64,000 nucleotides of DNA from an uncultured Alphaproteobacteria bacterium (GCA_934276735.1 CAKQTG010000001.1:418203-482202); one strand, 5' to 3'; shown: positions 618-45,354, counted from the first letter of the stretch. Numbers and translations are program-made. Notes: generated from the sequence alone by a model not told the origin.

Positions 618-715
618 TTCTCTCTGTCTGGATGAATTATATCAAAAAAGTAGGGCGTGCGACAACATAAAAAAGACGTGCATAAATTATTTTTGATAAA
701 AAGTTATATTTGCTA

Positions 716-13880: not shown

Positions 13881-14317
13881 TTGCCAACTCACAAAATTCC
13901 CGTAGGTATTTTTTATGGTTGAAATTTAATTTTTTGGCGATTATAGTGAATATGAATCCAAAGGGATTTGGGTTCGGGGCCTTCAACAAGCCCGTAAATC
14001 TGTGGTATGCGCGATGCGTATATCAAATCCGCACAGTAAAGCGGCGCACATGCGCCATTTATTGTATGTACCCCACCATTATGGTCGGGGATCCACCGGT
14101 AATACAACAGGGGAAACCCAAAGATCGGTGGGGTCATTCTGATTTATGATTTGTTGAAATCCCCGACCGTCAAATAATTTTTGGCGGTTTTTTGTAATTT
14201 GTTTTGACGTATGTCCTGGGGCGATAATTTTGCACTTGCAAGCGTCAAAACAGATGGTATAAATAAAACTAACAGACGATGAAAATCGTCATCATTTGGA
14301 ATGAAAAGGAGAGCCTT

Positions 14318-17300
14318 ATGAAAATGTCCCGTACAGCAATCAAAGAATTAACCGCGGCATATCGTGCCGTATTGAAACATGCATTTATTGCCGCAATGGG
14401 CGCAATGGTCGTTATCGGTGGCGCATCAGCCGAAAATACGAACAATCGTGAATACTTTACAGCAGATACAGAATGGTCTGGTAAAAATATTTCAAACAAT
14501 GATTTTAAGTATGCCGAAGGTCGGACTGATAAAAACAAAGCGTTTGGAGGATTGGCTTTTGTTGATGGGGCAAAATTGACGGTTGCAGATTCTGTGTTTG
14601 ACAATAACACATTTGATTATGTTGGTGGTGTTTTTGCAACTGGCGTCGGTGGGGGCGTATTAGATGTATCTGGTTCAACATTTTCTAATAATCATAGCAC
14701 ATTTGATGGTGGTGCCATTGGTGGCTATGGCGTGTTAAAGGTCACAAATTCTACATTTGTTGGAAACACAACAGATTTGACCAAGGATGCCGAAGGTAAT
14801 TATACTGTTGCAGTTGAGGATAATTTGCCAGTAGGCGGTGGTGCAATTTCGTTTGGTGCGGTTTCATCATCAGATATTGCATCAATCAATGACACAAAAT
14901 TTATTAATAATGTGTCTGGAATAAATGGTGGTGCTATTGGAACGCGTTTGGGCAAGGATGCAAATAACAGTGCAGCAAAATTAAACGTATCGGCAACGTT
15001 TGAAGGCAATCGCGCATATCAAAATGGTGGTGCGATTTATAATACGTTTTATGCGAATAATGGTTTGGAATTGGGCGATGGTGTGACCGTGGCTGGTAAT
15101 TTTACCAAAAATTCCGCAGGCAAAAACGGTGGCGCAATCTTTAACGATGGTGCCAAGGACAATATTGGTAATGCCGGTGGCGTTATGACCATTCGCGATT
15201 CGTTGTTCAGTGAAAACAGTGCAACAAAATGGGGCGGGGCAATCTTTAACAGTGGCACATTGACACTGGGCGATGGCGTTTCGTTCACAGGCAACAGCGC
15301 AACAGATGGTGGTGCGGTTTGGAATGACGGTAAAATGGAAATCGCCGCAGGAACTAAGTTTGTTGGCAATAATAGTAAAAATGCCGCTGGTGCGTTGTAT
15401 AACAATGGTACTGGAACATTGGACAATCTGATTGGTGTTGTTTTTGAAAATAATACCGCGGCGAAGGGTGGTGCTATTAACAATTCAAAAACATCAGCCA
15501 GCGTCAAGGGTGGAATAATAAATCTGATTTCAAAATCACATTTCATTGGTAATTCTGGTGGAATATCTCAAGGGGGGGCAATCCGTAATCAGGGAACTAT
15601 ATCTAAAATTGAAAAGAGTGTATTTGACTCCAACGTCGCAGGAAATGGTGGCGCAATCAATAATGGAACCTGGGGCAGCGTGGTAGAAGGTATTTATCAG
15701 ACAAAGTTTATCAATAATACGGCGGTTGTGGGACCAGCCCAGCAAGGTGGTGCGATTGTCAATGCAGGACACATCGGCATTATTGATGAAACGGTGTTTG
15801 AATCAAACCATGCTGGCAAGATTGGTGGTGCAATAGCAAATGTGACCCCACAAAATAGTGGTGGCGACCCTGCAGAGGTTAATATTGCAAATTCTACATT
15901 TACAGGTAATGTTGCCGGTGAAAGCGGTGGTGCAATATACAATGCCACAGGTGGGGCGGTAAGTCTGTCTGGGGAAAATACGTTTACTGGTAATATGGCG
16001 GGTGGCGTCGGAAACGATATTCACAATTTGGGTAAATTGACGGTGTCGGGCGGCACAACGACCATTGATGGCGGTATCACAGGCGATGGCGCATTGACCA
16101 TTGCTGATGGCGCAACACTGAATATCGGTACCACAACGGTTCAACAAAAAGAATTGACACTGGACGGCACGGTTGGAGTATCACTGATAGACGCTGAAAA
16201 TTACGGTAAATTGTGGGTGGAAACATATACAGGCAACGGTAAGATTGCGCTGAATGTTGCAACGCCTGGGACATACGATGTTTTTGGAGAGTATGTCGTG
16301 TATGATAATGTTGATGCCGGTGCGGTATATAACATGGTCAGAGATGGCGGTAAGTTCACTTTCAAAACCAAAGCAGTGAATGAAATTGCAGCTGACACTG
16401 GGTTGACGAATGTTGCCGCAAATACGGTTGCTGCGTTGGCAAATGCAGATAACAATTTGGCAAATATTGCATCGCTGAACGCGCAACAGGCATTGCGTAA
16501 TGGCGATACAGATTATGTTGAAATCGAATCTGCCAAGGCAAACCCAATTGATCAACCTGTCGTTCAATCGGTTGCGCAATCTGTTCAGGGCGCAGTCATG
16601 ACACTGGCGGCGAATCGTATGGCGGGCACACCATCGGCGGGCACAATGGGCCGCAGCGGTGGTGATTTGTCTGATGCTGATTACGGCGTGTGGGCACAGG
16701 GTATGTTTAACAAATCCAAATTCAATGGCCAGTTCAACGGATACACCCGTGGTGTGTCGGCTGGGTTTGATGCGCTGATTGACAAACAGTACACGATTGG
16801 TTTGGGTTATGCGTTCGGACATTCTGATGTTCATGCCAATGGCGGTCGCGATACCGAAATTGACAGCAATAGCATATTTGCATATGCCCAGTACAAGCCA
16901 AGCGAATGGTTCGTCAATGCGGCATTGAATTACACAATGTCAAAATATACCGAAACCGTTGACGCATTTGGTGTTCGTCTGAAATCAGACCACGATACTG
17001 ATGCGTTCGGTGGCCAGGTTATGACCGGTTATGATTTTGCATCAGGCCTGACGCCGGAAATTGGTCTGCGCTATTTGCACGTGACCCAGGACGGATACAA
17101 TAACGGTCTGGCACACGTCAGCAGCGATGATACAGATTTCTTGACTGGAATTGCCGGTATGAAATATCGTTTCGCAATTGAAAACGATTCGGTTATCAAC
17201 TGGTTCCCAGAACTGCGTGCGGCGGCGACGTATGATTTTGTGTCTGACCGTGCGATGTCCACCGTTACAATGCCAGGCGCGGCGTCCTATGTGGTTGATG

Positions 17301-17449
17301 GCGACCGTCTGTCCCGATTCGGTGGGGAATTCGGAATTGGTCTGACCGCAGAATACAAAGGACTGGAAATCTCGCTGGTTTATGATTTGGATCTGCACAA
17401 AGATTACACATCACAAACCGGTATGGCAAAATTCAGATATGAATTCTGA
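14318..17449 (+). CDS. Polymorphic-outer-membrane-protein (Pmp)-like autotransporter. The passenger is full of GGAI and FxxN repeats; a C-terminal beta-barrel ends in ...KFRYEF.
   Basis: At least 12 GGA[IV] motifs (GGAISFG, GGAIGTR, GGAIYNT, GGAIFND…) alternate with F(V/T/E/I)GN motifs. The C-terminal ~300 aa is beta-strand-like and ends in an aromatic residue. Start moved to ATG 14318, six nt after an aaggag RBS. Confidence 0.8.
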   Translation: MKMSRTAIKELTAAYRAVLKHAFIAAMGAMVVIGGASAENTNNREYFTADTEWSGKNISNNDFKYAEGRTDKNKAFGGLAFVDGAKLTVADSVFDNNTFDYVGGVFATGVGGGVLDVSGSTFSNNHSTFDGGAIGGYGVLKVTNSTFVGNTTDLTKDAEGNYTVAVEDNLPVGGGAISFGAVSSSDIASINDTKFINNVSGINGGAIGTRLGKDANNSAAKLNVSATFEGNRAYQNGGAIYNTFYANNGLELGDGVTVAGNFTKNSAGKNGGAIFNDGAKDNIGNAGGVMTIRDSLFSENSATKWGGAIFNSGTLTLGDGVSFTGNSATDGGAVWNDGKMEIAAGTKFVGNNSKNAAGALYNNGTGTLDNLIGVVFENNTAAKGGAINNSKTSASVKGGIINLISKSHFIGNSGGISQGGAIRNQGTISKIEKSVFDSNVAGNGGAINNGTWGSVVEGIYQTKFINNTAVVGPAQQGGAIVNAGHIGIIDETVFESNHAGKIGGAIANVTPQNSGGDPAEVNIANSTFTGNVAGESGGAIYNATGGAVSLSGENTFTGNMAGGVGNDIHNLGKLTVSGGTTTIDGGITGDGALTIADGATLNIGTTTVQQKELTLDGTVGVSLIDAENYGKLWVETYTGNGKIALNVATPGTYDVFGEYVVYDNVDAGAVYNMVRDGGKFTFKTKAVNEIAADTGLTNVAANTVAALANADNNLANIASLNAQQALRNGDTDYVEIESAKANPIDQPVVQSVAQSVQGAVMTLAANRMAGTPSAGTMGRSGGDLSDADYGVWAQGMFNKSKFNGQFNGYTRGVSAGFDALIDKQYTIGLGYAFGHSDVHANGGRDTEIDSNSIFAYAQYKPSEWFVNAALNYTMSKYTETVDAFGVRLKSDHDTDAFGGQVMTGYDFASGLTPEIGLRYLHVTQDGYNNGLAHVSSDDTDFLTGIAGMKYRFAIENDSVINWFPELRAAATYDFVSDRAMSTVTMPGAASYVVDGDRLSRFGGEFGIGLTAEYKGLEISLVYDLDLHKDYTSQTGMAKFRYEF

Positions 17450-17525: not shown

Positions 17526-18230
17526 TTATTTAAAATATTTGCTGTGTTGTTCTTGGGATATTTTATACATTTTGTCAAACAGTGCGTCGGCATCGGCGCG
17601 TGTTGCGGGGCCCGATGTTGTGCCACCAATATCGGCACCGTTTAATATAACCAGACGACTGGGGGCCAGGTCATTGCCACATTCGATAAAGTATTCGGCA
17701 CTGTCGTAATATTTACCAAAACAGCGACCGTTTGCAATCCCGGCATATCCGGCATCGGCCAGTGCATTGCACGATGGTTGCGCACCGCGTGTGATTTCGC
17801 CATTACCCAATGTTTCATACACATCGTATCCCGCCGCGCCCAGGACACCATTGCACCATACGTTCACGTATTGCCCGTCCAGTGAAACGGTTGTGCCATT
17901 TGAACTGGTCTTGCGTGAACCAAAGCAATCGCCATTTAATATATTTATGTCATAGTCACGGGTATTGATTCCCGCGCCACGTGAAATTTCTGCGCGTCCG
18001 ATTGGGGTTGCGTCGTCTGATTGCGGACTGAGTGCCGCACCGCAAATCATTTTGATTCCGCGACAATTACTGGTCGCGTCCCATAATTCGGTGTCATAAC
18101 CCGCGCCCATTGAAACATAGCATTTTGTTGGATCCAGGCGGCAAACCGTCGGCTGTTGCCACCAGGGGGTGGCGGCTGTTGCCGCGCCACATAATACCGA
18201 AATCACAGAAAACGCAAATATTTTTTTCAT
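17526..18230 (-). CDS. Secreted hypothetical protein (234 aa, 10 Cys), last gene of the infA / paralog-A transcription unit
   Basis: Start moved to ATG 18230 (MKKIFAFSVISVLCGAATAATPWW, signal peptide). It lies 60 bp downstream of paralog A on the same strand. Confidence 0.6.
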   Translation of the reverse strand: MKKIFAFSVISVLCGAATAATPWWQQPTVCRLDPTKCYVSMGAGYDTELWDATSNCRGIKMICGAALSPQSDDATPIGRAEISRGAGINTRDYDINILNGDCFGSRKTSSNGTTVSLDGQYVNVWCNGVLGAAGYDVYETLGNGEITRGAQPSCNALADAGYAGIANGRCFGKYYDSAEYFIECGNDLAPSRLVILNGADIGGTTSGPATRADADALFDKMYKISQEQHSKYFK

Positions 18231-18289
18231 TTCAATCTCTTGGTATGTGTGTATTCTACCAGAATTTGCCCCGATATGCAAGGTCGCCA

Positions 18290-20845
18290 CTATTGCCCAG
18301 TGCCTGTGCCACCGCCCGATGTGTTGTCGCTTGTCGTTGCGCCATTGGTGGTTGAGTTGTTATTACTGGTTGTTTCGTCATCTGAGGCACGGCAATAACC
18401 CCATTTTGTATTTGCACCTGTTTCGGAATAGAATTTCTGGTGCAATTTATGTCCCGTAATGTCATGCTTGCCGTTACCACCTTTCGTGTTGTTTGTGGCC
18501 TGTTGGTCGGTTGTGGTTTCGGTGGAATCGTTTTCTTCTTGGTCAATCCATTGCGTATCAACCCACAGTCCGTTCAGACGTTTGCATTCCGCCGCTAGCA
18601 CTGTTGCCATTTCAACACGTATTGAATCCATGACGACATTTACATCTTCCATAACAGTGGTCGGCAATACGTAATTGGATTTGGTCGCCTCGGACGGACG
18701 GACACAGGTCTGCATTGCGTAGCGCACCATTTTTTGATACAGACTGCCGATATAGTCGGTGCCACATTTGCTGGTGTCAACCTCTGGTTCGTCCGGCGTT
18801 TCTGTGCCGCCGCATACACCATCCGTGCATGGCTGGCAACTGTTGCCGGTGGTGAGGGTGTTGTCTGCAACCCATATACCGTTTTTACGGACCGCCAGGA
18901 AGTAACCTTGTTTGCAACGCGTGTATTGTTTGCTGGTTGGGCAAATGTATCCGGATGCGGTTGATGTGTCGCCATCGTCACCGCCCGGTGTATTGCCGCC
19001 GGTATCATCATCGCCACCACTGTCGCCATTATTGCGATTCCACAATTCCTGGTTACACTGGTAATTTGTGGCGTATTGCTGTTCGCCCGGCGCATACACG
19101 CGGCAACCATACGGATATGCGTGCAGACTGTCGTTAGATGGGACGGCGCACATGTCGCGTGCAAATTCTTGCAAAGTGACACGGCATTCCTTGCCAATCT
19201 TTTGATCGGTGATGTTGCGCATGGCCTGGACCAGTAAATCCAGGGCGTTGCCGGAACCGTCGCTATATAACATGCTGCACGCCTGTAATTTTTCCTTGCA
19301 CATTTCTTCGGATAATTCCAGGCGCGACCCCCGTAATAATTGCTCTTTGACATTACTAAAATCTTTTAACGATTTGCTCTGTTCATCGTAACAGGCATTT
19401 ACGACGTCCAGACATTCGTTTTTGACGGTGCGGATTCGTTCATGCTGGCCCTGGTATATTTCGGCGATTGCCTGGCGCATGAATTCATCCCACACATCGT
19501 CGGCCAGATCGCGACACGTGTCCAGTCCGCGCGCGGCGTATGCACGCTTGCTGTTTAATTCGGCGACAATCAGGCGGTTTGAAGGATTGGTCAACACGTC
19601 GCCCGATAATGAAATCTGGGTTTCCAATTGGTAAAAATCCGCCGTGTAAATAGGTTCGCCCTTGTCCCGGGTCAGATACCGGCCAGATATATCCAGACAA
19701 TGAACATAATCTGTGCCACACGCCGTGTCGGCGGTGATATCCTTGCGCACCTGGGCGATACAGTCGTTGATTGATGTTGAATTATGGGCGTTATAATTTT
19801 CCAGACGCGCGTCGTTCATTTCGCGCTCGGTGCTGCGTATCGTGCCCTGGGCGGTCGCCAGTTTTTTATTCAGTGCCGTCAGCAATGTTGTGCAATCGTT
19901 TTCAATATACATGCCATACGCTGCGACAACCATGTTCAGGGTTGATCGTGACGGACAGCGTTCAGAAACCAAATCGGCACACTGGCTGTGCACCGCGTTG
20001 TATAATGATTCCCCGGTCAGGTTCGCAATGTTTGCGCCCGATGCCAAATCTGTGGTTGCCCAGATTGCGTTTATGTCGCCGGCGATGTCCAGTGTCCCCA
20101 GTGTTGATAACGAATTTGATTTGGTCTTGGTTAAAACCGCACTGATACCGGCCAGTTTTTGCGCCGATGATGAATTGTCGCGTGCGGTTGATGCCGCAGT
20201 TTCGCCGGTGGTCGCGTTGACCATTGCCTTGACCTCGGCCGCGGTTTTGGGAATAACCTCTATATTCAAGTTCTTGAAATCTTGCAGTTGGTCAGATGCC
20301 TGGCCCAGGGCGCGTTCACGTGATTTTATTTCGGTCAGCTTGGACGAGCATACGCACCGACGGTATGTGTCATCTTGTTTTGCACAGAATTGATCCATGC
20401 ATGAAAAGTATGCGTCACGGCACGTGTTGTATCCGGTGCCAAATGTGTTTGTGCCGGCCGCCGATGTGGTGGTGGCGCGGGCGACCGCCCCGCTGCGCGC
20501 GACGGTTTTTGTTGCACTGCGTGCAGATGATTGTGTCGTGGTCGCACTGCGCGCGGTGGTTGTTGCACTGCGTGCGGTGGTGTTGGTGCGGGCCGCACTG
20601 CGCGCCGTGGCGGTGCGGTTGACCGTATTGCGTGCGGTGGTGCGCGCCGTTGCATTACGTGCGGTGGTCGCGGTTGCCCCCGTGCGCGTTGATGTTTGTT
20701 GTGATTGTGCGGTGTCTGATTTTGCGCGCGTGGTGACACTGTCTCTGGGCGTGGTGCGGGTGACGCTGGACGCGCTGCGCACCGCGGCATCGGCAAAACC
20801 GATGCCGGCACAGAGTGTTGCGGCAAAAAGCAAAATCTTTTTCAT
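18290..20845 (-). CDS. Paralog A of the large secreted Cys-rich protein family (851 aa). Signal peptide, then a T/A/R-rich tandem-repeat linker, then the family motif CRDAYFSCMDQFCAKQDDTYRRCVCSS, then a Cys-rich helical body.
   Basis: Start moved to ATG 20845 (MKKILLFAATLCAGIGFADA). Motif and downstream blocks (ACGTDYVHCLD, CRDLADDVWDEF) align with paralogs B and C. Confidence 0.75.
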   Translation of the reverse strand: MKKILLFAATLCAGIGFADAAVRSASSVTRTTPRDSVTTRAKSDTAQSQQTSTRTGATATTARNATARTTARNTVNRTATARSAARTNTTARSATTTARSATTTQSSARSATKTVARSGAVARATTTSAAGTNTFGTGYNTCRDAYFSCMDQFCAKQDDTYRRCVCSSKLTEIKSRERALGQASDQLQDFKNLNIEVIPKTAAEVKAMVNATTGETAASTARDNSSSAQKLAGISAVLTKTKSNSLSTLGTLDIAGDINAIWATTDLASGANIANLTGESLYNAVHSQCADLVSERCPSRSTLNMVVAAYGMYIENDCTTLLTALNKKLATAQGTIRSTEREMNDARLENYNAHNSTSINDCIAQVRKDITADTACGTDYVHCLDISGRYLTRDKGEPIYTADFYQLETQISLSGDVLTNPSNRLIVAELNSKRAYAARGLDTCRDLADDVWDEFMRQAIAEIYQGQHERIRTVKNECLDVVNACYDEQSKSLKDFSNVKEQLLRGSRLELSEEMCKEKLQACSMLYSDGSGNALDLLVQAMRNITDQKIGKECRVTLQEFARDMCAVPSNDSLHAYPYGCRVYAPGEQQYATNYQCNQELWNRNNGDSGGDDDTGGNTPGGDDGDTSTASGYICPTSKQYTRCKQGYFLAVRKNGIWVADNTLTTGNSCQPCTDGVCGGTETPDEPEVDTSKCGTDYIGSLYQKMVRYAMQTCVRPSEATKSNYVLPTTVMEDVNVVMDSIRVEMATVLAAECKRLNGLWVDTQWIDQEENDSTETTTDQQATNNTKGGNGKHDITGHKLHQKFYSETGANTKWGYCRASDDETTSNNNSTTNGATTSDNTSGGGTGTGQ
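20480..20720. repeat. Intragenic tandem repeat (~24-30 bp units encoding TTARNATARTTARNTVNRTATARSAARTNTTARSATTTARSATTT) inside paralog A
   Basis: Reiterated gcactgcg(t/c)gc(g/a)gtggt… units are visible in the DNA. Confidence 0.6.
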
Positions 20846-20956
20846 CCTTGGCTTTGTGATAATGATAGCAAAAATGCCCTTTTCGGGGCAAGGGTTATTT
20901 CGCACAATCGCGCAATTTTTTTGCAAAAATAATCCCGCAGATTACGGGACTTTTTA

Positions 20957-21205
20957 TTAATTATTTGTATCTGTGTTGGACGGACGGTTACGTTCAACAA
21001 ATGTGATACGTCCCTTGTCCAAATCGTATGGGGTCATTTCAACACGGACGCGTTCGCCAATGTTGACCCAGATGCGCGCCTTGCGCATTTTGCCACACAC
21101 GGTGGCCAAAATTTCGTGACCGTTTTCCAATTTAACACGAAACATCGTGTTCGGTAATTTATCTTCGACCGTGCCACTGAATACAATTACATCATCTTTT
21201 GCCAT
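20957..21205 (-). CDS. infA: Translation initiation factor IF-1
   Basis: [69 protein letters not shown]… is the canonical IF-1 S1 domain, followed by a short extension ([12 protein letters not shown]) not found in E. coli IF-1 (established knowledge of infA). Confidence 0.9.
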
Positions 21206-21345
21206 AGTTTATCCTTAGCATTTTTCTGAATTTTTACTGGTCTAATATTATATTTTTGCATAAAAAATTGCAAGTTGTTTTTATCTGCTTGCACGGCGGG
21301 GCCGGATTTGATAAAATTAGACATAATAATGTAGGGTGGAGTCAT

Positions 21346-23514
21346 ATGAGATTAGGCTTGTTTTTCACATTGTTGTGTGTTGTGCCGGGACTGGCATATG
21401 GGGCGGCGCGTGATGATACGAACGTTCGTGTCGGGGTGACGCGTATGTCAATGGCGGGTGCGCGTGCGCCAAATATGACGGGAAATCTGGGCGGAAATAA
21501 AACCACCACGCCGACGATACCAACCACCAGCAGCAGTGGTGGCACAACAAATCCGACGCCAAATCCAACACCCACTCCCACACCAGAACCGACACCGGCC
21601 CCCGCGCCAAATCCGGGCACGTCCGACGCTGGCACTGACACATCGTGTCGCACGGCGTATCGCGCGTGTATGGATGAATTCTGCCTGTTGGACGAGAGCG
21701 AGGGTAATCGTTGCGCCTGTTCGGATAACATAAACAAATCAAAATCATTGATTCAAGAAATTCAAAAAATTCAATCAGACGCTGATAATTTATACACCGA
21801 GGGGGTAGAGCGCGAACAACTGGGGGCCAAGGCAAAACTGGTATTTGGCCAGAGTGCGGCCGCACAGAAAAGTTCGCGTGCATCGGGACTGAGTTTTACC
21901 GAGTGGTTAAACAGCGACAATAATTCGGATTCGCTGGGTGCGGACGAAGATATTGGCGATGGTCTGTATTCGATGGCGGCAACATATTGTGCCGACGCAT
22001 TGGCGAAATGTGGCAGTTCTGCCGATATGGAAGAGGCGTTATATTCTCGTCAAATTGTTGCCGATTGCAAGGCGTTTGATTCATATCTGGCCGACCAGAA
22101 ATCAAATGCCCAGGCCAACAAACGCACGGCCGAGGCCGCTGTGCGCAAGGCGCGTCTGGAAATGTTGGATACAACAAATAAATATAACCGCGGCGAATGC
22201 CTGTTGGCGTATAAATCGTGTATCGCGGACAAGGGCGGCTGTGGCGCGAACTTTGAAAACTGTTTGGATCGCGACCTGTTGGGGCGTCGTGCAAATGCGT
22301 GCGAAAATGTTCTGGACCAGTGTATGGCGGTGCGGGACAGTGTATTACAGGATTGGGATGCAGAATCCGAAAGTATTTTAGTTGATGCGGCGAAATACGC
22401 GGATAAAAATGCCCGCGCAACATGTCTGGCACGGATTCAGGTCTGTTTGGAAGATGGATGCAGCACGGCAACAAATTCGGCGTGCCTGACCGATGTCAAG
22501 GTTGCGGCCGGTGTTTGCCCGGTTATTACCGAATGCGAAGAAATGATTCCGGGTATCCAAAGTGCGGTCAATGATAAACTGGGGTATCTGCGGACGCATT
22601 TCTGCCAGAACGATATTGATAAATGCCTGCAAAGCAAGTGCGGTGAAAACTTTACTGCGCCGGAATGCGTTGGTAAAAGTGCAACGGAAATTGCCGCGCT
22701 GTGCCCCCAGGATATGTATCCGTCATGCAAAAACGAAACCCAATTTGACATAATTGTGCAATCGGTTTTGTTACAGATGGATTACCAGATGTTGCAAGGG
22801 TGCCTGAATTACTTTGGCGAACAGTTGGGCAAGGTTTGCGGCACGGATATGTCGTGCCTGCCGACGGATACGACGATTGCGTCACTGACGTCGGTGCCGG
22901 ACGATTCTGCGGCATTGGCGCAGTTGCGCGAAACCGTGCGCAGCAATGTTGCCACGTCGGTGGATGAATTCTTTACCCAGTTTGAACAGGATAAAACGGT
23001 TGCTGCCTGTGCAGACAGCCAGAAACCCGCCGGTAAAAAATCATTGGGCGACACGGTGTTCAACAGTGCGAAAATGATCGCACAAATCGGGGCGGAAAAT
23101 CGTGCGATGCGCGCATTGGAAACCAAGATTTCAGAACTGTCGCGCCAGCAAGATTTGAATGCGGCCGAAAAGAACTGTCTGAATACATACAAGGTGGAAT
23201 CGCCGGACAAATCGTCCAAGAATTACAGTTATATCCGCAGTGTATCGTTTGAACCATCGTTGCGTAATTGCCATGTGTGCCGTATGCAACAGGTCTGCGA
23301 AACGGGTGGCGAATCCAAGGGAACCGCGGGCCTGAAAGGATTGGCGGGCGGCCTGTCGGCGGGTGCGGCGGCTGGCACGATGGTGACCCCGGGGTGGGGC
23401 ACGGCAATCGGCGGTGTCGTTGGCGCGGTTGGTGGTCTGTTCGCAGGGCGCAGTGCGGGTGGCAAACAAGAATTCTGCCAGGAAATTGAATCCTGTGAAG
23501 ATATAAATATGTAA
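21346..23514 (+). CDS. Paralog B of the large secreted Cys-rich protein family (722 aa). Signal peptide, P/T-rich linker, motif CRTAYRACMDEFCLLDESEGNRCACSD, Cys-rich body, C-terminal RNCHVC box, glycine-zipper hydrophobic tail.
   Basis: Start moved to ATG 21346 (ggtggagtcatATG; MRLGLFFTLLCVVPGLAYG). Blocks YSRQIVADC, NKYNRGEC, CGANFENC and CENVLDQCMAVRDSV are shared with paralog C. Confidence 0.8.
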   Translation: MRLGLFFTLLCVVPGLAYGAARDDTNVRVGVTRMSMAGARAPNMTGNLGGNKTTTPTIPTTSSSGGTTNPTPNPTPTPTPEPTPAPAPNPGTSDAGTDTSCRTAYRACMDEFCLLDESEGNRCACSDNINKSKSLIQEIQKIQSDADNLYTEGVEREQLGAKAKLVFGQSAAAQKSSRASGLSFTEWLNSDNNSDSLGADEDIGDGLYSMAATYCADALAKCGSSADMEEALYSRQIVADCKAFDSYLADQKSNAQANKRTAEAAVRKARLEMLDTTNKYNRGECLLAYKSCIADKGGCGANFENCLDRDLLGRRANACENVLDQCMAVRDSVLQDWDAESESILVDAAKYADKNARATCLARIQVCLEDGCSTATNSACLTDVKVAAGVCPVITECEEMIPGIQSAVNDKLGYLRTHFCQNDIDKCLQSKCGENFTAPECVGKSATEIAALCPQDMYPSCKNETQFDIIVQSVLLQMDYQMLQGCLNYFGEQLGKVCGTDMSCLPTDTTIASLTSVPDDSAALAQLRETVRSNVATSVDEFFTQFEQDKTVAACADSQKPAGKKSLGDTVFNSAKMIAQIGAENRAMRALETKISELSRQQDLNAAEKNCLNTYKVESPDKSSKNYSYIRSVSFEPSLRNCHVCRMQQVCETGGESKGTAGLKGLAGGLSAGAAAGTMVTPGWGTAIGGVVGAVGGLFAGRSAGGKQEFCQEIESCEDINM

Positions 23515-23530
23515 TATTCGGGCATAAAAT

Positions 23531-25972
23531 ATGAATATAAAAAATATATTGACGTTTGTGATTTGTGGTGTTGTGGCCGTGGGCGCGGGTGACGCGTTGG
23601 CGGCGGCCAAGACATCGAAACAGGCGGCAATACAAACCGGGACAAATGTTCGGGCGCGGCTGACGGCAACAGGTCTGTATGACCAGGAATGTTATGACGC
23701 GTATTATTCGTGCATGGATCAATTCTGTATCGCGGATAATTCCAGTGGGGGCAGTTGCGCATGCAGTGACGAAAACGCAAAATATGAACAACAACTGGCC
23801 GAAATCCAAGATATGGTGGACGAGGCCGCACGTATCCGCACCGAAGAGGTTGAAAAGGTTCGCGCGGGTGCGGATGCCGATATTATATTTACGGGCGAAC
23901 GCAAATACGATGAAAACGGCAATATTATCAAGACGGGCGAATTGACCGCGGCAGAAAAAAAAGCCCAAGACCGCCAGAGTTTGATGGCGTTGTTTAACGC
24001 GACCAGCGACGATGACGAAGATGTTGTAACAGGTATCGCGGACAAGGCCGGCAACGCGCTGTATAACGCGGCCCAGGAACTGTGCACGGCCCAGATTCCG
24101 GACAAATGTTCGTCTGATTTGAATTTCTTGACCCAATTATATTCACGCCAGATTGTATCAGACTGTCGCGGTTTTGAAAACAGCATCAACGCCAAAATGG
24201 CCACCGCAAAGCAAGACTTGGTTACTGCCCAGGGCGAAGTGCGCACCGCACTGCAAGAAAGTTTTGAATCGGCCAATAAATATGATTTGGGCACATGCAT
24301 GGTGGAATTTAAAAAGTGCATGCAGACCGATGATGCCTGTGGCGCGGGTTGGGAAAATTGTGTTTCGACAATTGCATCTGAAAATATGCAAAACAATACC
24401 GCGGTCAGCACCGCCGGCACCACGGTTGCAACGGTTGATAAATATGACATAACCACGTCAACCATGGAAATCTTGAATTCCAAGCGCACCATTTGTGAAA
24501 AGGTTTTGGACCAATGCGTCGCCGTCCGCGACCAGGTTTGGCCGGCGTTCCTGCGCGAAGCGGCCCCAACGATAAAGGTTGCCGAATCCCAGGTTGAATC
24601 AAAGTTTCGTCAATCGTGCCTGGGCACAATTTCCGACTGTATCCAGACGGCGTGTCGCGACGATATCGCGGGCAAGGGCGTTGCAACAATGGACGCATGC
24701 TTGGCACGTCCCGATATGGCACGCAGTTTCTGCAAGGTTGAAATTGACCCGTGTGAACGCATGGAACCGCAAATTTGGGACTATGTAACCGATAAACTGG
24801 CGGCGATGCGTGTTGATGCCTGCACGAACGAGGTCAAAGAGTGTTTTACCGCGGATACACGTTGCGGCGCGAATTTCCAGAACTGTATCGGTATGGATTA
24901 CGATTATATTCACGATATTTGCCCGATTGACACGTTGGTTGTCTGCAAACAGAATAACAAAGACTTTTCAATGGATGATTTGGATTCTATGTTGATGGGG
25001 CTGTATCTGAATATTGATAACAGTGCGCTGACCCAGTGTGAAAACCTGGTCGACACCAAAATGGCCGAAATTTGTGGCAGCACCACCGACTGTAACAAAT
25101 TCGCCAGTGATGATACAATTGGCACCGGATCATTGCGTTCCCAGAAAGATGGCACGACGTATCGTGTGACCGGTATGATTTCGTTCGGCAGTATCAAGAT
25201 GGGCGACGCGTCTGGCAAAACGATTGACAATGGCGATGGCAAGACTGTGCGTCTGGGCCCCGGTGAAATCGGTGTTGCAGAATACCTGAACCAGATTCGC
25301 ACGCGCAATTCGTCGGTCAAAAATGCCGATGGCATCATTTCGTCAATTGAAGAAGAACTGAACAACATTGCTGGCACAATCAATCGCACAATTGAAATGA
25401 TTGAACAGGACCCGCAAATCCAATACTGTGTGAACGGGCGCGATTTGTCCCAGATTACGGGCAAGGCGAACCAGAAAACCACGGCACGTTTTCCGAACCT
25501 GTTAAACAGTGTGAAAATGCAAATCGCGGTCGCTGCACTGCGCCAGGCCCAGGATAACTATAACGCCAAACTGAATAAACAAATCGCAGACGCAACCAAA
25601 GACGCGTCCACAGATTTGGCGCAATATATGTGCCAGAAAATGGCCGAAACCGGCGGGGCGGGCACAACCGGAATTTCATCATCAACGCCGCTGGCGGCAC
25701 CATATGCAATCAGTTATGATGTGGGCTCGGGCCTCAGTAATGATGACCTGACACGTGGCGGGACGGGTGAAACATCAATTACGACCACCGCGGGCAGTGG
25801 CGTCACCAAAACCGTGACCAGTCTGTTTAACCGTGAAACACGTAATTGCCACGTCTGCACCACAACCACCACACAGAGTTGCACTATAAAGGGCGGCAAT
25901 TGGTTCCGCAAGGCGAACAAGAATTGCGACGTTAAAACCGATGGCCCGAATTGTGAAGATATCGCAATGTAA
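23531..25972 (+). CDS. Paralog C of the large secreted Cys-rich protein family (813 aa). Signal peptide, motif CYDAYYSCMDQFCIADNSSGGSCACSD, Cys-rich body, C-terminal RNCHVC box.
   Basis: 16 bp downstream of paralog B, so probably in an operon with it. Blocks YSRQIVSDC, NKYDLGTC, CGAGWENC and CEKVLDQCVAVRDQV are conserved. Confidence 0.8.
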   Translation: MNIKNILTFVICGVVAVGAGDALAAAKTSKQAAIQTGTNVRARLTATGLYDQECYDAYYSCMDQFCIADNSSGGSCACSDENAKYEQQLAEIQDMVDEAARIRTEEVEKVRAGADADIIFTGERKYDENGNIIKTGELTAAEKKAQDRQSLMALFNATSDDDEDVVTGIADKAGNALYNAAQELCTAQIPDKCSSDLNFLTQLYSRQIVSDCRGFENSINAKMATAKQDLVTAQGEVRTALQESFESANKYDLGTCMVEFKKCMQTDDACGAGWENCVSTIASENMQNNTAVSTAGTTVATVDKYDITTSTMEILNSKRTICEKVLDQCVAVRDQVWPAFLREAAPTIKVAESQVESKFRQSCLGTISDCIQTACRDDIAGKGVATMDACLARPDMARSFCKVEIDPCERMEPQIWDYVTDKLAAMRVDACTNEVKECFTADTRCGANFQNCIGMDYDYIHDICPIDTLVVCKQNNKDFSMDDLDSMLMGLYLNIDNSALTQCENLVDTKMAEICGSTTDCNKFASDDTIGTGSLRSQKDGTTYRVTGMISFGSIKMGDASGKTIDNGDGKTVRLGPGEIGVAEYLNQIRTRNSSVKNADGIISSIEEELNNIAGTINRTIEMIEQDPQIQYCVNGRDLSQITGKANQKTTARFPNLLNSVKMQIAVAALRQAQDNYNAKLNKQIADATKDASTDLAQYMCQKMAETGGAGTTGISSSTPLAAPYAISYDVGSGLSNDDLTRGGTGETSITTTAGSGVTKTVTSLFNRETRNCHVCTTTTTQSCTIKGGNWFRKANKNCDVKTDGPNCEDIAM

Positions 25973-27194: not shown

Positions 27195-27221
27195 AAAACG
27201 CGCCATCGGCGCGTTTTTTAC
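27195..27221 (+). terminator. Rho-independent terminator (aaaaacgcgccatcggcgcgtttttt)
   Basis: CGCGCC-NNNG-GCGCG hairpin plus T-run. The same hairpin type recurs at several gene ends. Confidence 0.7.
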
Positions 27222-27560
27222 AAGAGAGCAATGCGCAGAGAGCAGAGAGCAATGAAGCGCGCCAGTGGCGCGCTTGTTTTTATCGTCGCGGTCTAAGTTC
27301 CCCTTCGCTGGCGAAGGGGTGTCCACATAGTGGACGGGGTAGTGGTGGTCCCTGCGGGGCAATGGATACCGGCCTGCGCCGGTATGACAGTTGTGTGTGG
27401 TTGAGGACCATATTTTACGAACATAGTTTATGTCTTAGTTGCGGACCAAGTTCTCCTCCGGTAACCACCCGCGAAATTGATAAATTTCGTGGGTGGTTAC
27501 CAGGCCGGGGCCCATTGCCCCGCAGGGACATCGTTGCCCCAAAAAAACACAAAAAATCAT
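27222..27560. repeat. Mosaic intergenic repeat array (modules M1-M5). An inverted near-copy of the same ~250-bp composite is at 54920-55200.
   Basis: Contains agagagcagagagcaatgaagcgcgcc…gcttgtttttatcgtcgcgg, gttcccct…gcgaagggg, ggataccggcctgcgccggtatgac, ccacccgcgaaattgataaatttcgtgggtgg, all of which recur elsewhere in the window. Confidence 0.8.
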
Positions 27561-27619: not shown

Positions 27620-27744
27620 CCGAAAATAAACCACCGTTTGGTTTTGACGTAAATTCGCGCTTGGTGATTGGTAAAAAATGTGCTAAAATTAAACCATTGT
27701 ATATAAGTGAGAAATGCCGAACCCAAACGGTGGTTTATTTTCGG
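27620..27744. promoter_or_regulatory. Perfect 22-bp inverted repeat (27620-27641 / 27723-27744) bracketing an 81-bp segment with promoter-like elements (TTGGTG …17 bp… TGcTAAAAT) upstream of the 27760 CDS
   Basis: ccgaaaataaaccaccgtttgg is an exact reverse complement of ccaaacggtggtttattttcgg. An extended -10 TGnTAAAAT lies between the arms. Confidence 0.5.
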
Positions 27745-27759
27745 CGCGGGGGATATATT

Positions 27760-29823
27760 ATGAAAAAAATCTGGTTTCTATCAATGTGTTGTGCGTGTAT
27801 GTTGGTCGGAATTTCTAATTCATATGGTGATTGTGGCGGAGATCAGTGCCAGTATAAGTTGTCTGATGGAACAACAGATTGCGCTAACATCGGCGAGGTC
27901 AGGCCCTTTAAGTGTAGACTCGGTAGCGGCGGCGTATATAGTCTAGATCATGTAAAAGTTGGAGACGGCGAGAATCATTGCGATGCAAAATGCAAGTCTG
28001 GAGTGTTTTCTAATTGGTGGTATTATACATTGCAGTCTGACGCATGCGAAGATGGGTGGAAGGTTGACTTCGATAAAAAAATCTGTGTCGCTGCTGATAA
28101 CCAAAAATGTAAATACACCGATGGGACGTTTGCTCAAACAGGTGTTGTTCGGAATAAGGGCAACTGTATTTTTGCTAGTCTAGAACATATAAAAAATGGT
28201 GGCAAGGGCCAGTGCAAGAACACGTGTAAGTCTGACGGTTGGTATTCGGAATTACACAATGACGCATGTGAAGATGGGTGGCTGGTTTCTGCTGATAAAA
28301 AAAGCTGTTGGCCGAAATGTAAAGAAAACCAGTGTGTACAGTCGGTTGATGGTAAAAAATCCTGTGTTGACAGCGGCAAGAGTGTTTACGAGAACTGCAA
28401 AACAGGGGATGGGGGCATAGATAGCCTGGAGCATGTAAAAGGTGGCAGTGGCTGGTGCACGGTCATGTGTGTATCAGGAAAGTGGGGACAACGAGAGTTG
28501 CGCCCCAATGCATGCGAATCTGGTTATGTGGTTGCCGCCAATAAAAAAAGCTGTGTTGCGGCCGAGAAAAAAAGCGATGTTGACGTGCCAGCGTCTGACC
28601 AGGGTGCGTCGAAACAGAAACCTGGTGCCTGTAAAGAAAACCAGTGTATATCTTCCCTTGATGGTAGCTGTATTGACAGCGGCACGAGTTTTAACGATAA
28701 CTGCAACACTGGGGAAGGAGGCATAGATAGCCTGGAACATGTAAAAGATGGTGGCTCGATTCAGTGCACGGTCACATGTGTATCAGGAAAGTGGGGACAA
28801 CGAGAGTTGCGCCCCGATGCATGCGAATCTGGTTATGTGGTTGCCGCCGATAAAAAAAGCTGTGTTGCCGACGATAAAAAGGGTGATGCTGGTGCTGATG
28901 CCTCGTGCGAGCTGGGGAAAGCATGTAAGCCATCCAGCCATGGCGCAAAGGGTGATGGAATATGTATCAAATATCAGGGTGACACGGTTAGTTGTGCGGC
29001 AACGGCGTGCGATACAGACAATGGATATCACCTGGTAAAGCAAAATGGTCAATCCATGGGATGGTGCCAAAAGTGCAAAAAGGACGAGCAGGTAAATGCC
29101 ACCGGCGATGGTTGCGTGTCGAAAAGTGCGAATGGCAATTGCCCCTATGAAGACGGGACGTCTGCCCAAACAGGTGACGTTGTGAACGATACGAACTGTG
29201 TTTCAGTTAATCTGGATCATGTAACAATGGGGGGTAAAGACCGGTGCAAGTCCACGTGTAAGTCTAATGGTTGGGATTATGAATTACACGTTTACGCATG
29301 TGAATCTGGTTATGTGGTTGCCGACGATAAAAAGAGCTGTGTAGAGAAAACCACCGTCGCAGCCGAGAAAGATATCAATCCGACAGAAACTTTGACGGAC
29401 AGCAAACAGGTCACCTGTGGTAAAATTATTGGTGCCCAGTGGATTGATGGCGAGTGCAGATGCACAACTGCCGGGTGGGTTATGAATGCGACTGGAACCC
29501 AGTGCGTCAAGGGCGAGGCACTGATAAAGGCCGAGCGGTTGTCGGCGTCCCGGACGAATATAAGCCGCCTGTATAAAAAACTGGACAGCATGTCAAATGA
29601 CTTTAAGGTGTCGGTATGGCGTGACAAACAGGGGAATTTTAACACATCGCGTCTGGCGTCTGATTCAATTGCGGCGGTGGTGTTGGGGACGACGGGGGCG
29701 TTGGTAACCAGCAGCGTTGTAAAAAAGAATCAGGTATCCAGTGGGTTTGAAGGTATTAGTTGCCAGATAGGCGGCCAGACCGTTGCCGGCTGGGGTGACG
29801 AGTTCAGTGTTGGAATGCAATAA
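27760..29823 (+). CDS. Secreted Cys-rich tandem-repeat protein (687 aa; about 60 Cys). It is built from ~100-aa repeats carrying C-x-S-G-[KW]… and C-E-[SD]-G-[WY]-[VL]-V-[AS]-A-[DN]-KK-S-C units, with a C-terminal hydrophobic anchor.
   Basis: Start moved to ATG 27760 (MKKIWFLSMCCACMLVGISNSYG). Repeats such as CVSGKWGQRELRPNACESGYVVAANKKSCVAA and CVSGKWGQRELRPDACESGYVVAADKKSCVAD differ by two residues. Confidence 0.8.
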   Translation: MKKIWFLSMCCACMLVGISNSYGDCGGDQCQYKLSDGTTDCANIGEVRPFKCRLGSGGVYSLDHVKVGDGENHCDAKCKSGVFSNWWYYTLQSDACEDGWKVDFDKKICVAADNQKCKYTDGTFAQTGVVRNKGNCIFASLEHIKNGGKGQCKNTCKSDGWYSELHNDACEDGWLVSADKKSCWPKCKENQCVQSVDGKKSCVDSGKSVYENCKTGDGGIDSLEHVKGGSGWCTVMCVSGKWGQRELRPNACESGYVVAANKKSCVAAEKKSDVDVPASDQGASKQKPGACKENQCISSLDGSCIDSGTSFNDNCNTGEGGIDSLEHVKDGGSIQCTVTCVSGKWGQRELRPDACESGYVVAADKKSCVADDKKGDAGADASCELGKACKPSSHGAKGDGICIKYQGDTVSCAATACDTDNGYHLVKQNGQSMGWCQKCKKDEQVNATGDGCVSKSANGNCPYEDGTSAQTGDVVNDTNCVSVNLDHVTMGGKDRCKSTCKSNGWDYELHVYACESGYVVADDKKSCVEKTTVAAEKDINPTETLTDSKQVTCGKIIGAQWIDGECRCTTAGWVMNATGTQCVKGEALIKAERLSASRTNISRLYKKLDSMSNDFKVSVWRDKQGNFNTSRLASDSIAAVVLGTTGALVTSSVVKKNQVSSGFEGISCQIGGQTVAGWGDEFSVGMQ
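28318..28929. repeat. Intragenic tandem DNA repeat, unit ~306 bp. Two near-identical copies (about 28318-28623 and 28624-28929) are flanked by more degenerate copies.
   Basis: For example 28461-28560 and 28767-28866 are ~97% identical; 28318-28475 matches 28625-28780. Confidence 0.8.
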
Positions 29824-38774: not shown

Positions 38775-39434
38775 ATGAAAATACTGAATAAAAAAATTGC
38801 AGCACATAAATCATCGGTCGCGTGGTTGCAACGCCAGGCAGCGGATCCATATGTTGCGCGTGCCCATCGTGATGGCTATCGTGCGCGGGCAGCGTATAAA
38901 TTGATTGAAATGGACGAAAAATTTCATTTCTTGAAAAATGGTCAGATTGTTGTTGACTTGGGGGCGGCACCGGGCTCGTGGACACAATACGTGGTGCGTC
39001 AGTATCCGCGTTCGCGTGTGTTTGCAATGGATTTACTGGAAATAGCACCGATTCCAGGTGTTGAATTTTATCAGGGCGATTTTACAACCGATGCTGCGCT
39101 GGGGTGGCTGGTGGACAAGTTGAATTTGCCAGATGATGCAGTGGGTCACGGCACGGTTGACGTTGTATTATCTGATATGGCACCGAACACTGTGGGGCAT
39201 AAAAAGACCGACCATTTGCGCCAGATGGTGTTGCTGGAATACGCATTTGATTTTGCGTTGCGTGCATTAAAACCGGGTGGGACATTTGTCGCCAAATCGT
39301 TCACTGGTGGCACAACCGGCGAATTGATAAAACAGATAAAGGCTAAATTTGATACGGTGCATCATATAAAACCGCCTGCCTCGCGCAAGGACAGCGTTGA
39401 AATGTTTGTCGTTGCGATGGGATATCGTGGATAA
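38775..39434 (+). CDS. rlmE: 23S rRNA (uridine2552-2'-O)-methyltransferase RlmE/FtsJ
   Basis: …DPYVARAHRDGYRARAAYKLIEMDEKFHFLKNGQIVVDLGAAPGSWTQYVV… shows the SAM-binding motif and catalytic K-D-K-E context. Start moved to ATG 38775 (MKILNKK). Confidence 0.85.
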   Translation: MKILNKKIAAHKSSVAWLQRQAADPYVARAHRDGYRARAAYKLIEMDEKFHFLKNGQIVVDLGAAPGSWTQYVVRQYPRSRVFAMDLLEIAPIPGVEFYQGDFTTDAALGWLVDKLNLPDDAVGHGTVDVVLSDMAPNTVGHKKTDHLRQMVLLEYAFDFALRALKPGGTFVAKSFTGGTTGELIKQIKAKFDTVHHIKPPASRKDSVEMFVVAMGYRG

Positions 39435-39436
39435 AA

Positions 39437-39462
39437 ATGCCCCGCCGGGGCATTTTTTATTA
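39437..39462 (+). terminator. Rho-independent terminator (aaaatgccccgccggggcatttttt)
   Basis: Hairpin plus T-run after rlmE. Confidence 0.7.
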
Positions 39463-40200: not shown

Positions 40201-40228
40201 AAACGGGGCGGGGCCCCGTTTTTTTATT
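40198..40228 (-). terminator. Terminator for the dsbA-like gene (aaaaaacggggcggggccccgttttttt)
   Basis: Hairpin flanked by A/T runs, immediately 3' of the minus-strand CDS. Confidence 0.65.
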
Positions 40229-41048
40229 TTTCCAATGCCCGGATAATCTGGTCATATGGAATTGCACCTGGGAATGCCTGTTCCTGGACAATCAAGAACG
40301 GTGTGCCGCTGATTTCAAACTGTTGTGCCAAATCACGAACGTTTGCCATTTCACGGGCAACAACCTCGCCATTCATGTCTTTCTTTAATTGAGTGGTGTC
40401 CAGACCTGCTTCTTCGGCCATTTTCAGCACGTTCTTTTCAACCTTTTCGGCGATTTTAGACTGGTCTTTCAAATCGTCCTGGGTATAGAATTCACGTGTC
40501 ATCATCATGTCAACCAATTTTGCGGCCTTTTCTGGGCTCTGCAATTTTGCAGCAATCGCGGCCTTGGCTGGGGCATCAGATAATGCGCCATGGATAGAGA
40601 AGTTTTTAACAACAACGCGGACGTCATTGCGGGCCTTTAATACACGGTCCAGTTCACCGTGAACACGGCGGCAGTATGGGCAGCTGAAGTCTGTCCAGAT
40701 GTAGATTGTCTTTTTCGCATCCTGGGCACCCAAAATCGGGGCATCAGCAATCATTGTGTCGGCGTGATCGCGAACAAATGTGCGAACGGCCTTGTTCTTT
40801 TCAGCGTTCAGCTGTTCCTGGGCACCGTTGGCCATCTGTTGGATAATCAGCGGATTGACCGATGTCAGGTAATATGGAACATACAAGCGGCAAACGCTGC
40901 CTGCGACCAAGATGATGGCAAAAACCTTTGTTGCTTTCTTTGCCAATTTCAAACCAGCACTGGATTCGTTACCGATATGGGCCAGCAACATGCCGCCAAA
41001 CATATACAGCGCAATACCCAGAACCAGAACCAAGATTGTCCAAGTCAT
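40224..41048 (-). CDS. DsbA-family thiol:disulfide interchange protein with N-terminal membrane anchor
   Basis: Thioredoxin-fold CxxC active site (FSCPYCRR). N-terminal TM helix. RBS aaggag. Confidence 0.75.
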   Translation of the reverse strand: MTWTILVLVLGIALYMFGGMLLAHIGNESSAGLKLAKKATKVFAIILVAGSVCRLYVPYYLTSVNPLIIQQMANGAQEQLNAEKNKAVRTFVRDHADTMIADAPILGAQDAKKTIYIWTDFSCPYCRRVHGELDRVLKARNDVRVVVKNFSIHGALSDAPAKAAIAAKLQSPEKAAKLVDMMMTREFYTQDDLKDQSKIAEKVEKNVLKMAEEAGLDTTQLKKDMNGEVVAREMANVRDLAQQFEISGTPFLIVQEQAFPGAIPYDQIIRALEK

Positions 41049-42967: not shown

Positions 42968-43001
42968 GATTTCTTTTCCTCTCTCTCGGTATGTCCTGGG
43001 C

Positions 43002-45181: not shown

Positions 45182-45208
45182 AAAAATGCCCCACCGGGGC
45201 ATTTTTTT
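45182..45208 (+). terminator. Rho-independent terminator (aaaaaatgccccaccggggcattttttt)
   Basis: Hairpin plus T-run after rplI. Confidence 0.7.
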
Positions 45209-45345
45209 TAGAGAGCATCCGTCTCCGCTGCGCTCCGTCGCGATAAAGAGAGCAGAGAGCAATGAAGCGCGCCATCGGCGCGCTTGTTTTTATCGTCGCG
45301 GACTAAGTTCCCCTCTGGCCAGAGGGGTGGCGCAACGCGCCAATG
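45209..45345. repeat. Mosaic repeat array (M1 + palindrome gttcccctctggccagaggggtgg + terminator-like cgcgccaatggcgcg) between rplI and pgk
   Basis: The first 67 bp are identical to 39463-39529. The M1 module plus the CCCCTCTGGCCAGAGGGG palindrome are seen at four or more loci. Confidence 0.85.
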
Positions 45346-45354
45346 GCGCGTTTT

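Follow-up and report, generated by a model that had tools for sequence, protein, structure and literature searches.

In a 64,000-nucleotide stretch of DNA from an uncultured Alphaproteobacteria bacterium (GCA_934276735.1 CAKQTG010000001.1:418203-482202; the whole stretch is called the window here), three genes around infA, designated A, B and C, encode large exported cysteine-rich proteins which, judged by sequence comparison, are members of an undescribed protein family that has no model in Pfam or NCBIfam. Together with a fourth gene, D, they form a core four-gene module in which two putative operons, A-D and B-C, flank infA (Table 1). The host of the window is Candidatus Enterousia, a gut alphaproteobacterium of the order Rs-D84. 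The proteins are almost certainly disulfide-rich, their mature cysteines probably forming paired intramolecular disulfides, and we propose, as a tentative reading that we prefer without great confidence, that the A-D and B-C pairs build a disulfide-braced, rod-like structural scaffold of the cell envelope.

The kinship of A, B and C had been put forward in an earlier note on this DNA, and it was borne out by BLASTP and by hhalign. B and C matched each other at 5e-61 in BLASTP, with 30% identity over 484 amino acids, A matched C at 1e-27 and B at 3e-16, and hhalign comparison of the ortholog alignments returned probabilities of 100% for B-C, 99.5% for A-C and 98.7% for A-B. The three motif strings quoted in that note were all present, as were the blocks shared by B and C, YSRQIV[AS]DC, NKY..G.C, CGA.[FW]ENC and C..VLDQC.AVRD.V and, in A, ACGTDYVHCLD and CRDLADDVWDEF. 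The signature C-x3-[YF]-x-G-C-M-D-x-F-C-x3-N-x2-G-G-R-C-x-C was found in 139 of the 150 best family representatives, which is far beyond chance. The N-terminal motif has five cysteines, spaced C-x6-C-x4-C-x9-C-x-C, and not the eight that had been suggested to fold into a compact knot; because this number is odd, the motif must bond to the next cysteine cluster. The ORF (open reading frame) coordinates proposed earlier agreed with an ORF scan, and when genes were called independently on the scaffold from which the window comes (ENA ERZ28614899 scaffold_5, 484 kb), A, B, C and D had the same boundaries. At 720-850 amino acids the three proteins count as large and not, as they had been called, giant.

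When A-D were compared with Pfam and NCBIfam, matches were either absent or generic, the PDB yielded no match by sequence or with a 77-sequence profile, and a literature search for CX6C and the motif strings found nothing relevant; a motif first reported as unrecognised found no counterpart in Pfam, in NCBIfam or in the PDB. An exhaustive profile search placed at least 871 clusters (50% identity) in the family at E<=1e-3; with the threshold set to E<=1e-30 there were 412. An alignment of 153 members was made with hmmalign. A profile built from an alignment of A, B and C gave, among the matches listed, C orthologs only. The idea that the family is an expanded one was upheld by further paralogue lineages in related genomes. 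The family supplies a signature motif together with a testable structural principle, that of heptad-spaced disulfide staples, and could be used as a lineage marker in metagenomes and metaproteomes. Two candidates for membership were rejected. Gene D is not a short family member, since hhalign aligned only its signal peptide with those of A, B and C, to which it is otherwise unrelated in sequence, and D itself had no Pfam, NCBIfam or PDB match. Likewise, an ORF at the start of the window, thought earlier to be a further paralogue, gave no match to the family hidden Markov model (HMM) at E<10, an hhalign probability of about 1% and a weak BLASTP value of 0.003, and was ruled out. That ORF (3-641, minus strand) runs off the window start and encodes an exported protein with 14 cysteines in its first 205 amino acids, and its opening C-x7-C-LDSVC...C-x2-C bears a superficial likeness to the family motif with no detectable homology.

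Conservation of the cysteines was analyzed in 66-80 species-level orthologs. The mature cysteines of B, C and D were 99-100% conserved and those of A at least 97%, apart from C597 at 91% and the non-conserved C678 at 6%. In B, 36 mature cysteines were present in all 75 orthologs, each of them 100% conserved; C had 36 in 78 of 79 orthologs; and D had nine in 67 of 67, all 100% conserved across 69 orthologs. Orthologs of A carried 29, 31, 33, 35, 37 or 39 cysteines, i.e., the number was odd in 63 of 65 and changed in steps of two, and across the family an even count was found in 110 of 132 full-length representatives (binomial p 3e-15). The commonest spacing was C-x6-C, with 10 occurrences in C, eight in B, four in A and two in D, and as this spacing equals one heptad, both cysteines would lie on the same face of a helix. 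C363 and C408 of protein C were lost jointly, with C370 and C401 kept, in four 50%-identity clusters independent of one another. A hairpin of antiparallel helices with 1-4 and 2-3 staples would be expected to show this pattern, with C363-C408 and C370-C401 as the proposed disulfides, and a four-ligand metal site would not. C363/C408 was the only pair to give independent co-loss events; other co-loss across the family was mostly uninformative, and the A subfamily lacks C263, C322, C375 and C390 as one phylogenetic block. Protein C also contains two copies of a 28-residue module, at residues 253-280 and 428-455, which hhalign aligned with 93% probability (E 2e-7). The assignment of the cysteines to intramolecular disulfides and not to metal sites is supported by their invariance, their parity and the co-loss of C363 and C408, and on the same grounds the earlier description of disulfide-rich exported proteins is almost certainly right. 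Since A and D both have odd cysteine counts and are always co-transcribed neighbours, the data suggest that a single intermolecular disulfide links A to D or that both have a free thiol.

At the N-terminus each of the four proteins has a hydrophobic segment and, next to it, an AxA-type cleavage site (the cut is marked by a slash: FADA/A in A, AYG/A in B, ALA/A in C and ATA/A in D), which agrees with the signal peptides assigned to them before, and a Kyte-Doolittle scan of A-D found no strongly hydrophobic stretch beyond the N-terminal one. No lipobox was found at the signal peptides: the residues ahead of the cysteine in the hydrophobic stretch are T-L-L, A-T-L or V-I, and the conservation of this cysteine is only 36-60%. 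In D, the signal peptide (residues 1-19) is followed by nine invariant cysteines that include two C-x6-C pairs. A consists of a signal peptide, a T/A/R-rich linker, the five-cysteine motif, a putatively cysteine-stapled helical core at about residues 167-600 and a poorly conserved C-terminal third; B has a signal peptide, a P/T-rich linker, the five-cysteine motif, a putatively stapled helical body, a Gly-zipper-like segment and an invariant tail; and in C the signal peptide and five-cysteine motif are followed by predicted long helices and a predicted four-strand β region. The two linkers, tandemly repeated in A, are of the composition that the earlier note gave. The structure of C was modelled with AlphaFold2 from 77 sequences (C and B orthologs plus A). 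The model (predicted local distance difference test score, pLDDT, 67; predicted template modelling score, pTM, 0.39) has long helices at residues 52-706, the longest of 58 residues, which supports a long helical body as predicted earlier, and four long C-terminal strands at 744-812. The strands were present in both this model and a domain-only model of residues 590-813, whose pLDDT of 61 was no better than that of the full model. A Foldseek search of the PDB with the C model returned nothing below E 0.8.

The C-terminus ends in M in 77 of 80 C orthologs and in 75 of 75 B orthologs, and an invariant tail is common to B (EFCQEIESCEDINM) and C (..CEDI[AV]M); among the family representatives, 50 of 150 end in [IVLMFT]-x-[FMWY]. 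We considered whether the C-terminal strands and terminal M/F might be a β-barrel assembly machinery (BAM) β-signal or a trimeric-autotransporter anchor and rejected this, the tail being acidic and non-amphipathic and no YadA_anchor match being found. In B-type members a Gly/Ala-rich segment is inserted ahead of the tail, and some relatives have a strongly hydrophobic segment instead. The segment of B, which has a central turn, is possibly a re-entrant membrane hairpin; it scored 14.6 bits with Pfam Gly-zipper_Omp against a cut-off of 25, and the best relative (P0470) 21.9 against 25.

The homologues of gene C came without exception from uncultured gut Alphaproteobacteria and every one was unnamed or annotated as 'hypothetical'. 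The closest (97-98% identity) were in metagenome-assembled genomes labelled uncultured Alphaproteobacteria or Rickettsiales (UMGS1304), and those at 62-72% identity were in Candidatus Enterousia spp. of humans, chickens, horses, ruminants and termites. This gives a name to the host-associated alphaproteobacterium that had been supposed from the window. Enterousia is placed in the uncultured order Rs-D84, whose genomes are reported to span 0.75-1.0 Mb, to lack a TCA (tricarboxylic acid) cycle, respiratory chains and standard sugar, amino-acid and peptide transporters, to have an incomplete glycolysis with several enzymes missing, and to encode MreB, RodA and the transpeptidase MrdA; a lifestyle dependent on a partner has been considered possible (PMC12306168). 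The lineage consists of widespread, as yet uncultured gut bacteria that may either scavenge freely or depend on a partner. The Candidatus Enterousia genome is about 0.9 Mb (a closed genome among the sources of C homologues has 958,618 bp), and the module D/A/B/C occupies about 7.9 kb, nearly 1% of it.

The search with C recovered 80 species-level genomes, and the gene order was compared among them. The order D←A←infA/B→C was complete in 58; at the remaining loci either the sequence stops before the module is complete or an ORF is split, and an alternative order was seen in none. The position of infA was kept in all loci that reach infA, and D adjoined A in every genome examined, in line with the pairing of D and A noted earlier. 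This included the distant genome L083, in which the order is C′←B′←secG←infA/A′→D′ with both operon pairs intact and in which the proteins are 53% (A), 50% (B), 50% (C) and 45% (D) identical to those of the window; L083 is at least one distant carrier of the module and is probably also from the order Rs-D84. A further paralogue lineage was located on three independent contigs, where it comes right after rpoA-rplQ, at the end of the secY/ribosomal-protein operon, and on one of these contigs (L086) an A-D pair lies 6 kb beyond the paralogue. Because family members thus recur beside translation and secretion genes (infA, secG, secY and rplQ), their genomic settings suggest constitutive, high expression of the family. 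Another paralogue lineage lies downstream of a homologue (L085, 44% identity) of a 1210-aa exported protein of the window (1548-5180, plus strand), which has an N-terminal ankyrin repeat and no other domain match. The module itself is adjoined in the window by a very large exported Pmp-repeat autotransporter (14279-17449, plus strand).

Within the module, infA is probably transcribed separately from A, since a terminator-like hairpin and a promoter-like site lie before A. In the UMGS1303 lineage (L005:6800-7340) an indel of about 10 nt just past the T/A/R-rich linker shifts the reading frame of gene A, so that the signal peptide and linker fall out of frame with the motif and body, and several independent contigs carry truncated A calls of 644-649 amino acids starting at M208 (proteins P0152-P0164). 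The frameshift may be a true lesion specific to this lineage or may reflect misassembly of the repeat region. As the module is present wherever sequence reaches in the 80 genomes, takes up nearly 1% of the genome and is constrained as strongly as a housekeeping gene, it probably has a central part in the cell biology of Rs-D84.

Disulfide bonding, the A-D link, membrane anchoring, cellular location and scaffold function, as we infer them, would fit together in the following way. A, B and C would be exported by the Sec route as elongated, mostly α-helical proteins. After export, the invariant cysteines would pair, with C-x6-C staples joining neighbouring antiparallel helices in the 1-4/2-3 pattern, and the stapled helices would become rigid rods. 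B and C, with 36 cysteines each, would be fully paired, and A and D would each keep one unpaired cysteine, through which they may be joined by an intermolecular disulfide. B would probably be held at the membrane by the Gly-zipper-like re-entrant hairpin near its C-terminus, ahead of the tail that it shares with C. The resulting scaffold would be abundant and constitutively expressed, located in the periplasm or on the inner face of the outer membrane, and would not be a variable adhesin. As for how the cysteines would be oxidised, the DsbA-like protein that the earlier note pointed to is indeed encoded in the window as a membrane-anchored CPYC protein; its link to the module consists solely of its presence 14 kb away, and it can be taken as a candidate oxidant for the module proteins.

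Several points weigh against such a scaffold. The models of C are of medium confidence only, the Gly-zipper matches fall short of the Pfam cut-offs, and location and function are deduced from sequence. RodA, MreB and MrdA are reported, so it is likely that the cells make peptidoglycan, which leaves no obvious need for an extra scaffold. The frameshift of A in one lineage casts doubt on A being essential, and the strong conservation of the module could also be that of a surface protein with a conserved binding partner. In addition, respiratory chains are reportedly absent from the lineage (PMC12306168), so the usual reoxidation of DsbA through DsbB and quinone may be missing, which raises the question of how such an anaerobe oxidises at least 70 cysteines per protein set.

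The strength of selection bears on a rival explanation that we consider rather unlikely though it is the nearest competitor, namely that the proteins are surface-exposed rods by which the bacterium holds on to a partner cell or the host mucosa and which owe protease and bile resistance to their disulfides. Omega, the ratio of nonsynonymous to synonymous substitution rates (dN/dS), was determined for each gene against three relatives. It was 0.05-0.08 for B and 0.04-0.10 for C, similar to the 0.05-0.11 of the housekeeping channel MscS, and 0.12-0.16 for A and 0.07-0.18 for D, with sequence variation concentrated in the linkers and in the C-terminal third of A; for the adjacent Pmp autotransporter it was 0.21-0.30, three to five times above B and C. 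Values of this kind are typically seen in structural or housekeeping components under constraint and not in an antigenically exposed adhesin; exposed adhesins usually diversify. Because purifying selection on B and C is as strong as on MscS and the Pmp neighbour evolves three to five times faster, an adhesin, one of three functions offered in the earlier note, is weakened, as is an effector; the third, an envelope scaffold, fits best, none of the three being demonstrated. Pfam and NCBIfam scans also found no outer-membrane translocation domain, be it an autotransporter barrel, a YadA anchor or a type IX secretion system C-terminal domain (T9SS CTD), and 36 disulfide-forming cysteines would be hard to thread through a type V pore. 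What speaks for exposed rods is that the variable low-complexity linkers look like stalks, that a Pmp-type autotransporter is a neighbour, and that the conserved C-terminal β region with its terminal hydrophobic residue could serve to anchor the proteins in the outer membrane or to sort them there; a partner would also suit Rs-D84, which lacks standard transporters and several glycolytic enzymes and for which partner dependence is proposed (PMC12306168).

That partner dependence could also be served by a contact-dependent translocon, in which an α-helical pore-former or conduit made of A-D and B-C subassemblies would sit in the partner membrane and pass metabolites. The absence of standard transporters (PMC12306168), the long helical proteins, the C-terminal β hairpin region, the potentially membrane-active Gly-zipper-like segment of B and weak Foldseek matches that include Tc-toxin and secretin chains would be in keeping with this, but none of the structural matches reaches significance (E > 0.8, probability < 0.4), the proteins showed no amphipathic transmembrane hairpins, and dense disulfide stapling works against the large-scale refolding on which pore-formers rely, so we hold a translocon to be improbable. 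More improbable still is that the cysteines are metal ligands or a redox buffer, storing Cu(I), Zn or iron-sulphur (Fe-S) in cysteine-lined bundles like those of the Csp proteins. Heptad-spaced cysteines on helices would face the bundle core, as they do in Csp1. An anoxic habitat in a lineage reported without respiratory chains (PMC12306168) would suit such a role too. Against it stand the strong even-number rule with its two-step changes, the loss of exactly C363 and C408 with their two neighbours kept, which fits pairs and not sites of three or four ligands, the location of several cysteines in loops and β strands, the DsbA-like oxidase encoded nearby, and the finding that Pfam gave no match to DUF326/Csp or to any metal-binding domain.

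Returning to the disulfide-braced scaffold, its closest analogue in mechanism is found among proteins of the mitochondrial intermembrane space, namely those with twin Cx9C (CHCH) or twin Cx3C motifs. These have cysteine pairs of fixed spacing on two antiparallel helices, are stapled 1-4 and 2-3 and need an oxidising extracytoplasmic compartment to fold, as is proposed for the family here; the co-loss in the C363/C370-C401/C408 unit of C is what a twin CxnC hairpin would show. However, the spacings in the window are x6 and x7 with no x9 pairs, there was no Pfam CHCH match at E<=1, and, unlike the small mitochondrial Mia40 substrates, the proteins here have 720-850 amino acids, a predicted 14-18 disulfides and Sec signal peptides, and add a five-cysteine signature motif and a C-terminal β region. 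In proposed role the closest analogue is the cysteine-rich outer membrane complex of chlamydiae (OmcB, OmcA and Pmps), with which the module has in common Sec export, many conserved cysteines, a host-associated bacterium with a reduced genome and a Pmp-type autotransporter alongside. Homology is lacking (no Pfam Chlam_OMP6/DUF11 or NCBIfam match), OmcB is β-rich whereas the family is modelled as all-α rods, and the bonds, to judge from cysteine parity, would be mostly intramolecular, leaving one cysteine over in each of A and D; set against the chlamydial likeness, too, Enterousia is reported to keep genes for peptidoglycan and rod shape. Three-helix-bundle surface proteins and spectrin-like repeats (trypanosome HpHbR, invariant surface proteins, spectrin and plakin) also count among the closest known systems. 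With Gly-zipper hairpin proteins (Gly-zipper_Omp, Gly-zipper_YMGG and Rick_17kDa_Anti; SlyB-like), B and its relatives share a G/A-rich segment with a central turn, but this stays below the Pfam cut-offs, comes without a lipobox and is a small insertion near the C-terminus of 722 amino acids. For trimeric autotransporter adhesins there was no Pfam YadA_anchor match, and the four predicted strands end in a tail, CEDIxM, that is not an amphipathic β-signal; for Csp copper storage proteins there was no Pfam DUF326 match, and even parity and pairwise loss favour disulfides; and for the Helicobacter cysteine-rich proteins Pfam found no Sel1 repeat. By these profile and motif comparisons the family is not a member of the CHCH, OmcB/OmcA, Gly-zipper, trimeric-autotransporter, Csp or Sel1-repeat groups, and it presents a known principle in a new form, characterised by heptad spacing, very large multi-hairpin rods, a five-cysteine signature and a four-gene module. 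More speculatively, and at a likelihood we set a little under that of surface-exposed rods, the module could be an Rs-D84 envelope or contact structure of a new type, built from an all-α family with heptad-spaced twin Cx6C, in which A is bridged covalently to D and B and C are joined via their shared C-terminal module, and which would be the key adaptation to partner-dependent life in the anoxic gut with a tiny genome. If true, such a structure implies an unconventional periplasmic disulfide route in a lineage reported to lack respiratory chains.

Table 1. Coordinates of the four-gene module, of elements within it and of related features (window positions unless a contig is named)
Feature	Position	Strand	Details
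Gene D	17526..18230	-	234 aa, 10 Cys in total; exported; partner downstream of A
Gene A	18290..20845	-	851 aa, 30 Cys in total; diverged family member
Signature motif of A	20348..20422	-	aa 142-166, CRDAYFSCMDQFCAKQDDTYRRCVC
Tandem DNA repeats	20497..20677	-	Periods of 21-51 nt; code for the T/A/R-rich linker of A; variable region
Promoter-like site between infA and A	20862-20891	-	Consensus scan only; follows the terminator-like hairpin
Terminator-like hairpin between infA and A	20931..20951	-	Consensus scan only
infA (translation initiation factor IF-1)	20957..21205	-	Pfam eIF-1a 7.8e-23; between both family operons
Gene B	21346..23514	+	722 aa, 37 Cys in total; family member
Signature motif of B	21646..21720	+	aa 101-125, CRTAYRACMDEFCLLDESEGNRCAC
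Gly/Ala-rich Gly-zipper-like segment of B	23305..23457	+	aa 654-704, central TPGWG turn
Invariant C-terminal tail of B	23470..23511	+	EFCQEIESCEDINM; consensus conserved
Gene C	23531..25972	+	813 aa, 37 Cys in total; begins 16 nt past B
Signature motif of C	23690..23764	+	aa 54-78, CYDAYYSCMDQFCIADNSSGGSCAC
Internal repeat of C, copy 1	24287..24370	+	aa 253-280, C-x6-C-x6-C-x6-C
Putative twin C-x6-C helical hairpin of C	24617..24754	+	C363, C370 / C401, C408; model helices 333-382 and 394-409
Internal repeat of C, copy 2	24812..24895	+	aa 428-455
C-terminal β region of C (predicted)	25709..25969	+	aa 727-813, 5 Cys, conserved terminal CEDI[AV]M (here CEDIAM)
DsbA-like thiol:disulfide oxidoreductase	40224..41048	-	Pfam DSBA 2.7e-20; two N-terminal hydrophobic segments; CPYC active site
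rplQ-adjacent paralogues	L086:8001-10889, L088:5168-8119, L089:7898-10723		33-37% identical to C; related Rs-D84 genomes

Elsewhere in the window, a different exported cysteine-rich protein is encoded at 27661-29823 (plus strand), with 54 cysteines, five repeats ending in A-C-E-[DS]-G-[WY]-x-V-x3-K-K-x-C and a marginal Pfam cEGF match; CxxG[YW]-like motifs also occur in the C-terminal part of A (CKQGYFLA) and in two small ORFs near 53841-54583. A protein that combines a coiled coil with an OmpA domain at its C-terminus (41855-43126, minus strand) lies beside a weak MotA/ExbB-like membrane protein (43002-43706, minus strand), and from their domains the two may be a peptidoglycan-anchoring or energised envelope unit. 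Finally, mosaic intergenic repeats were found in both orientations at 27214-27500, 39433-40161, 45181-45351, 53096-53776, 54650-55161, 62554-62994 and 63551-63899. They gave no Rfam match at the gathering threshold and are made of modules of 40-250 nt with 75-99% identity and internal palindromes; one pair (27228-27477 and 54912-55161) is 95% complementary over 250 nt. The repeats resemble repetitive extragenic palindromic (REP), Rickettsia palindromic element (RPE) or miniature inverted-repeat transposable element (MITE)-like elements, which are unexpected in a genome of about 0.9 Mb.

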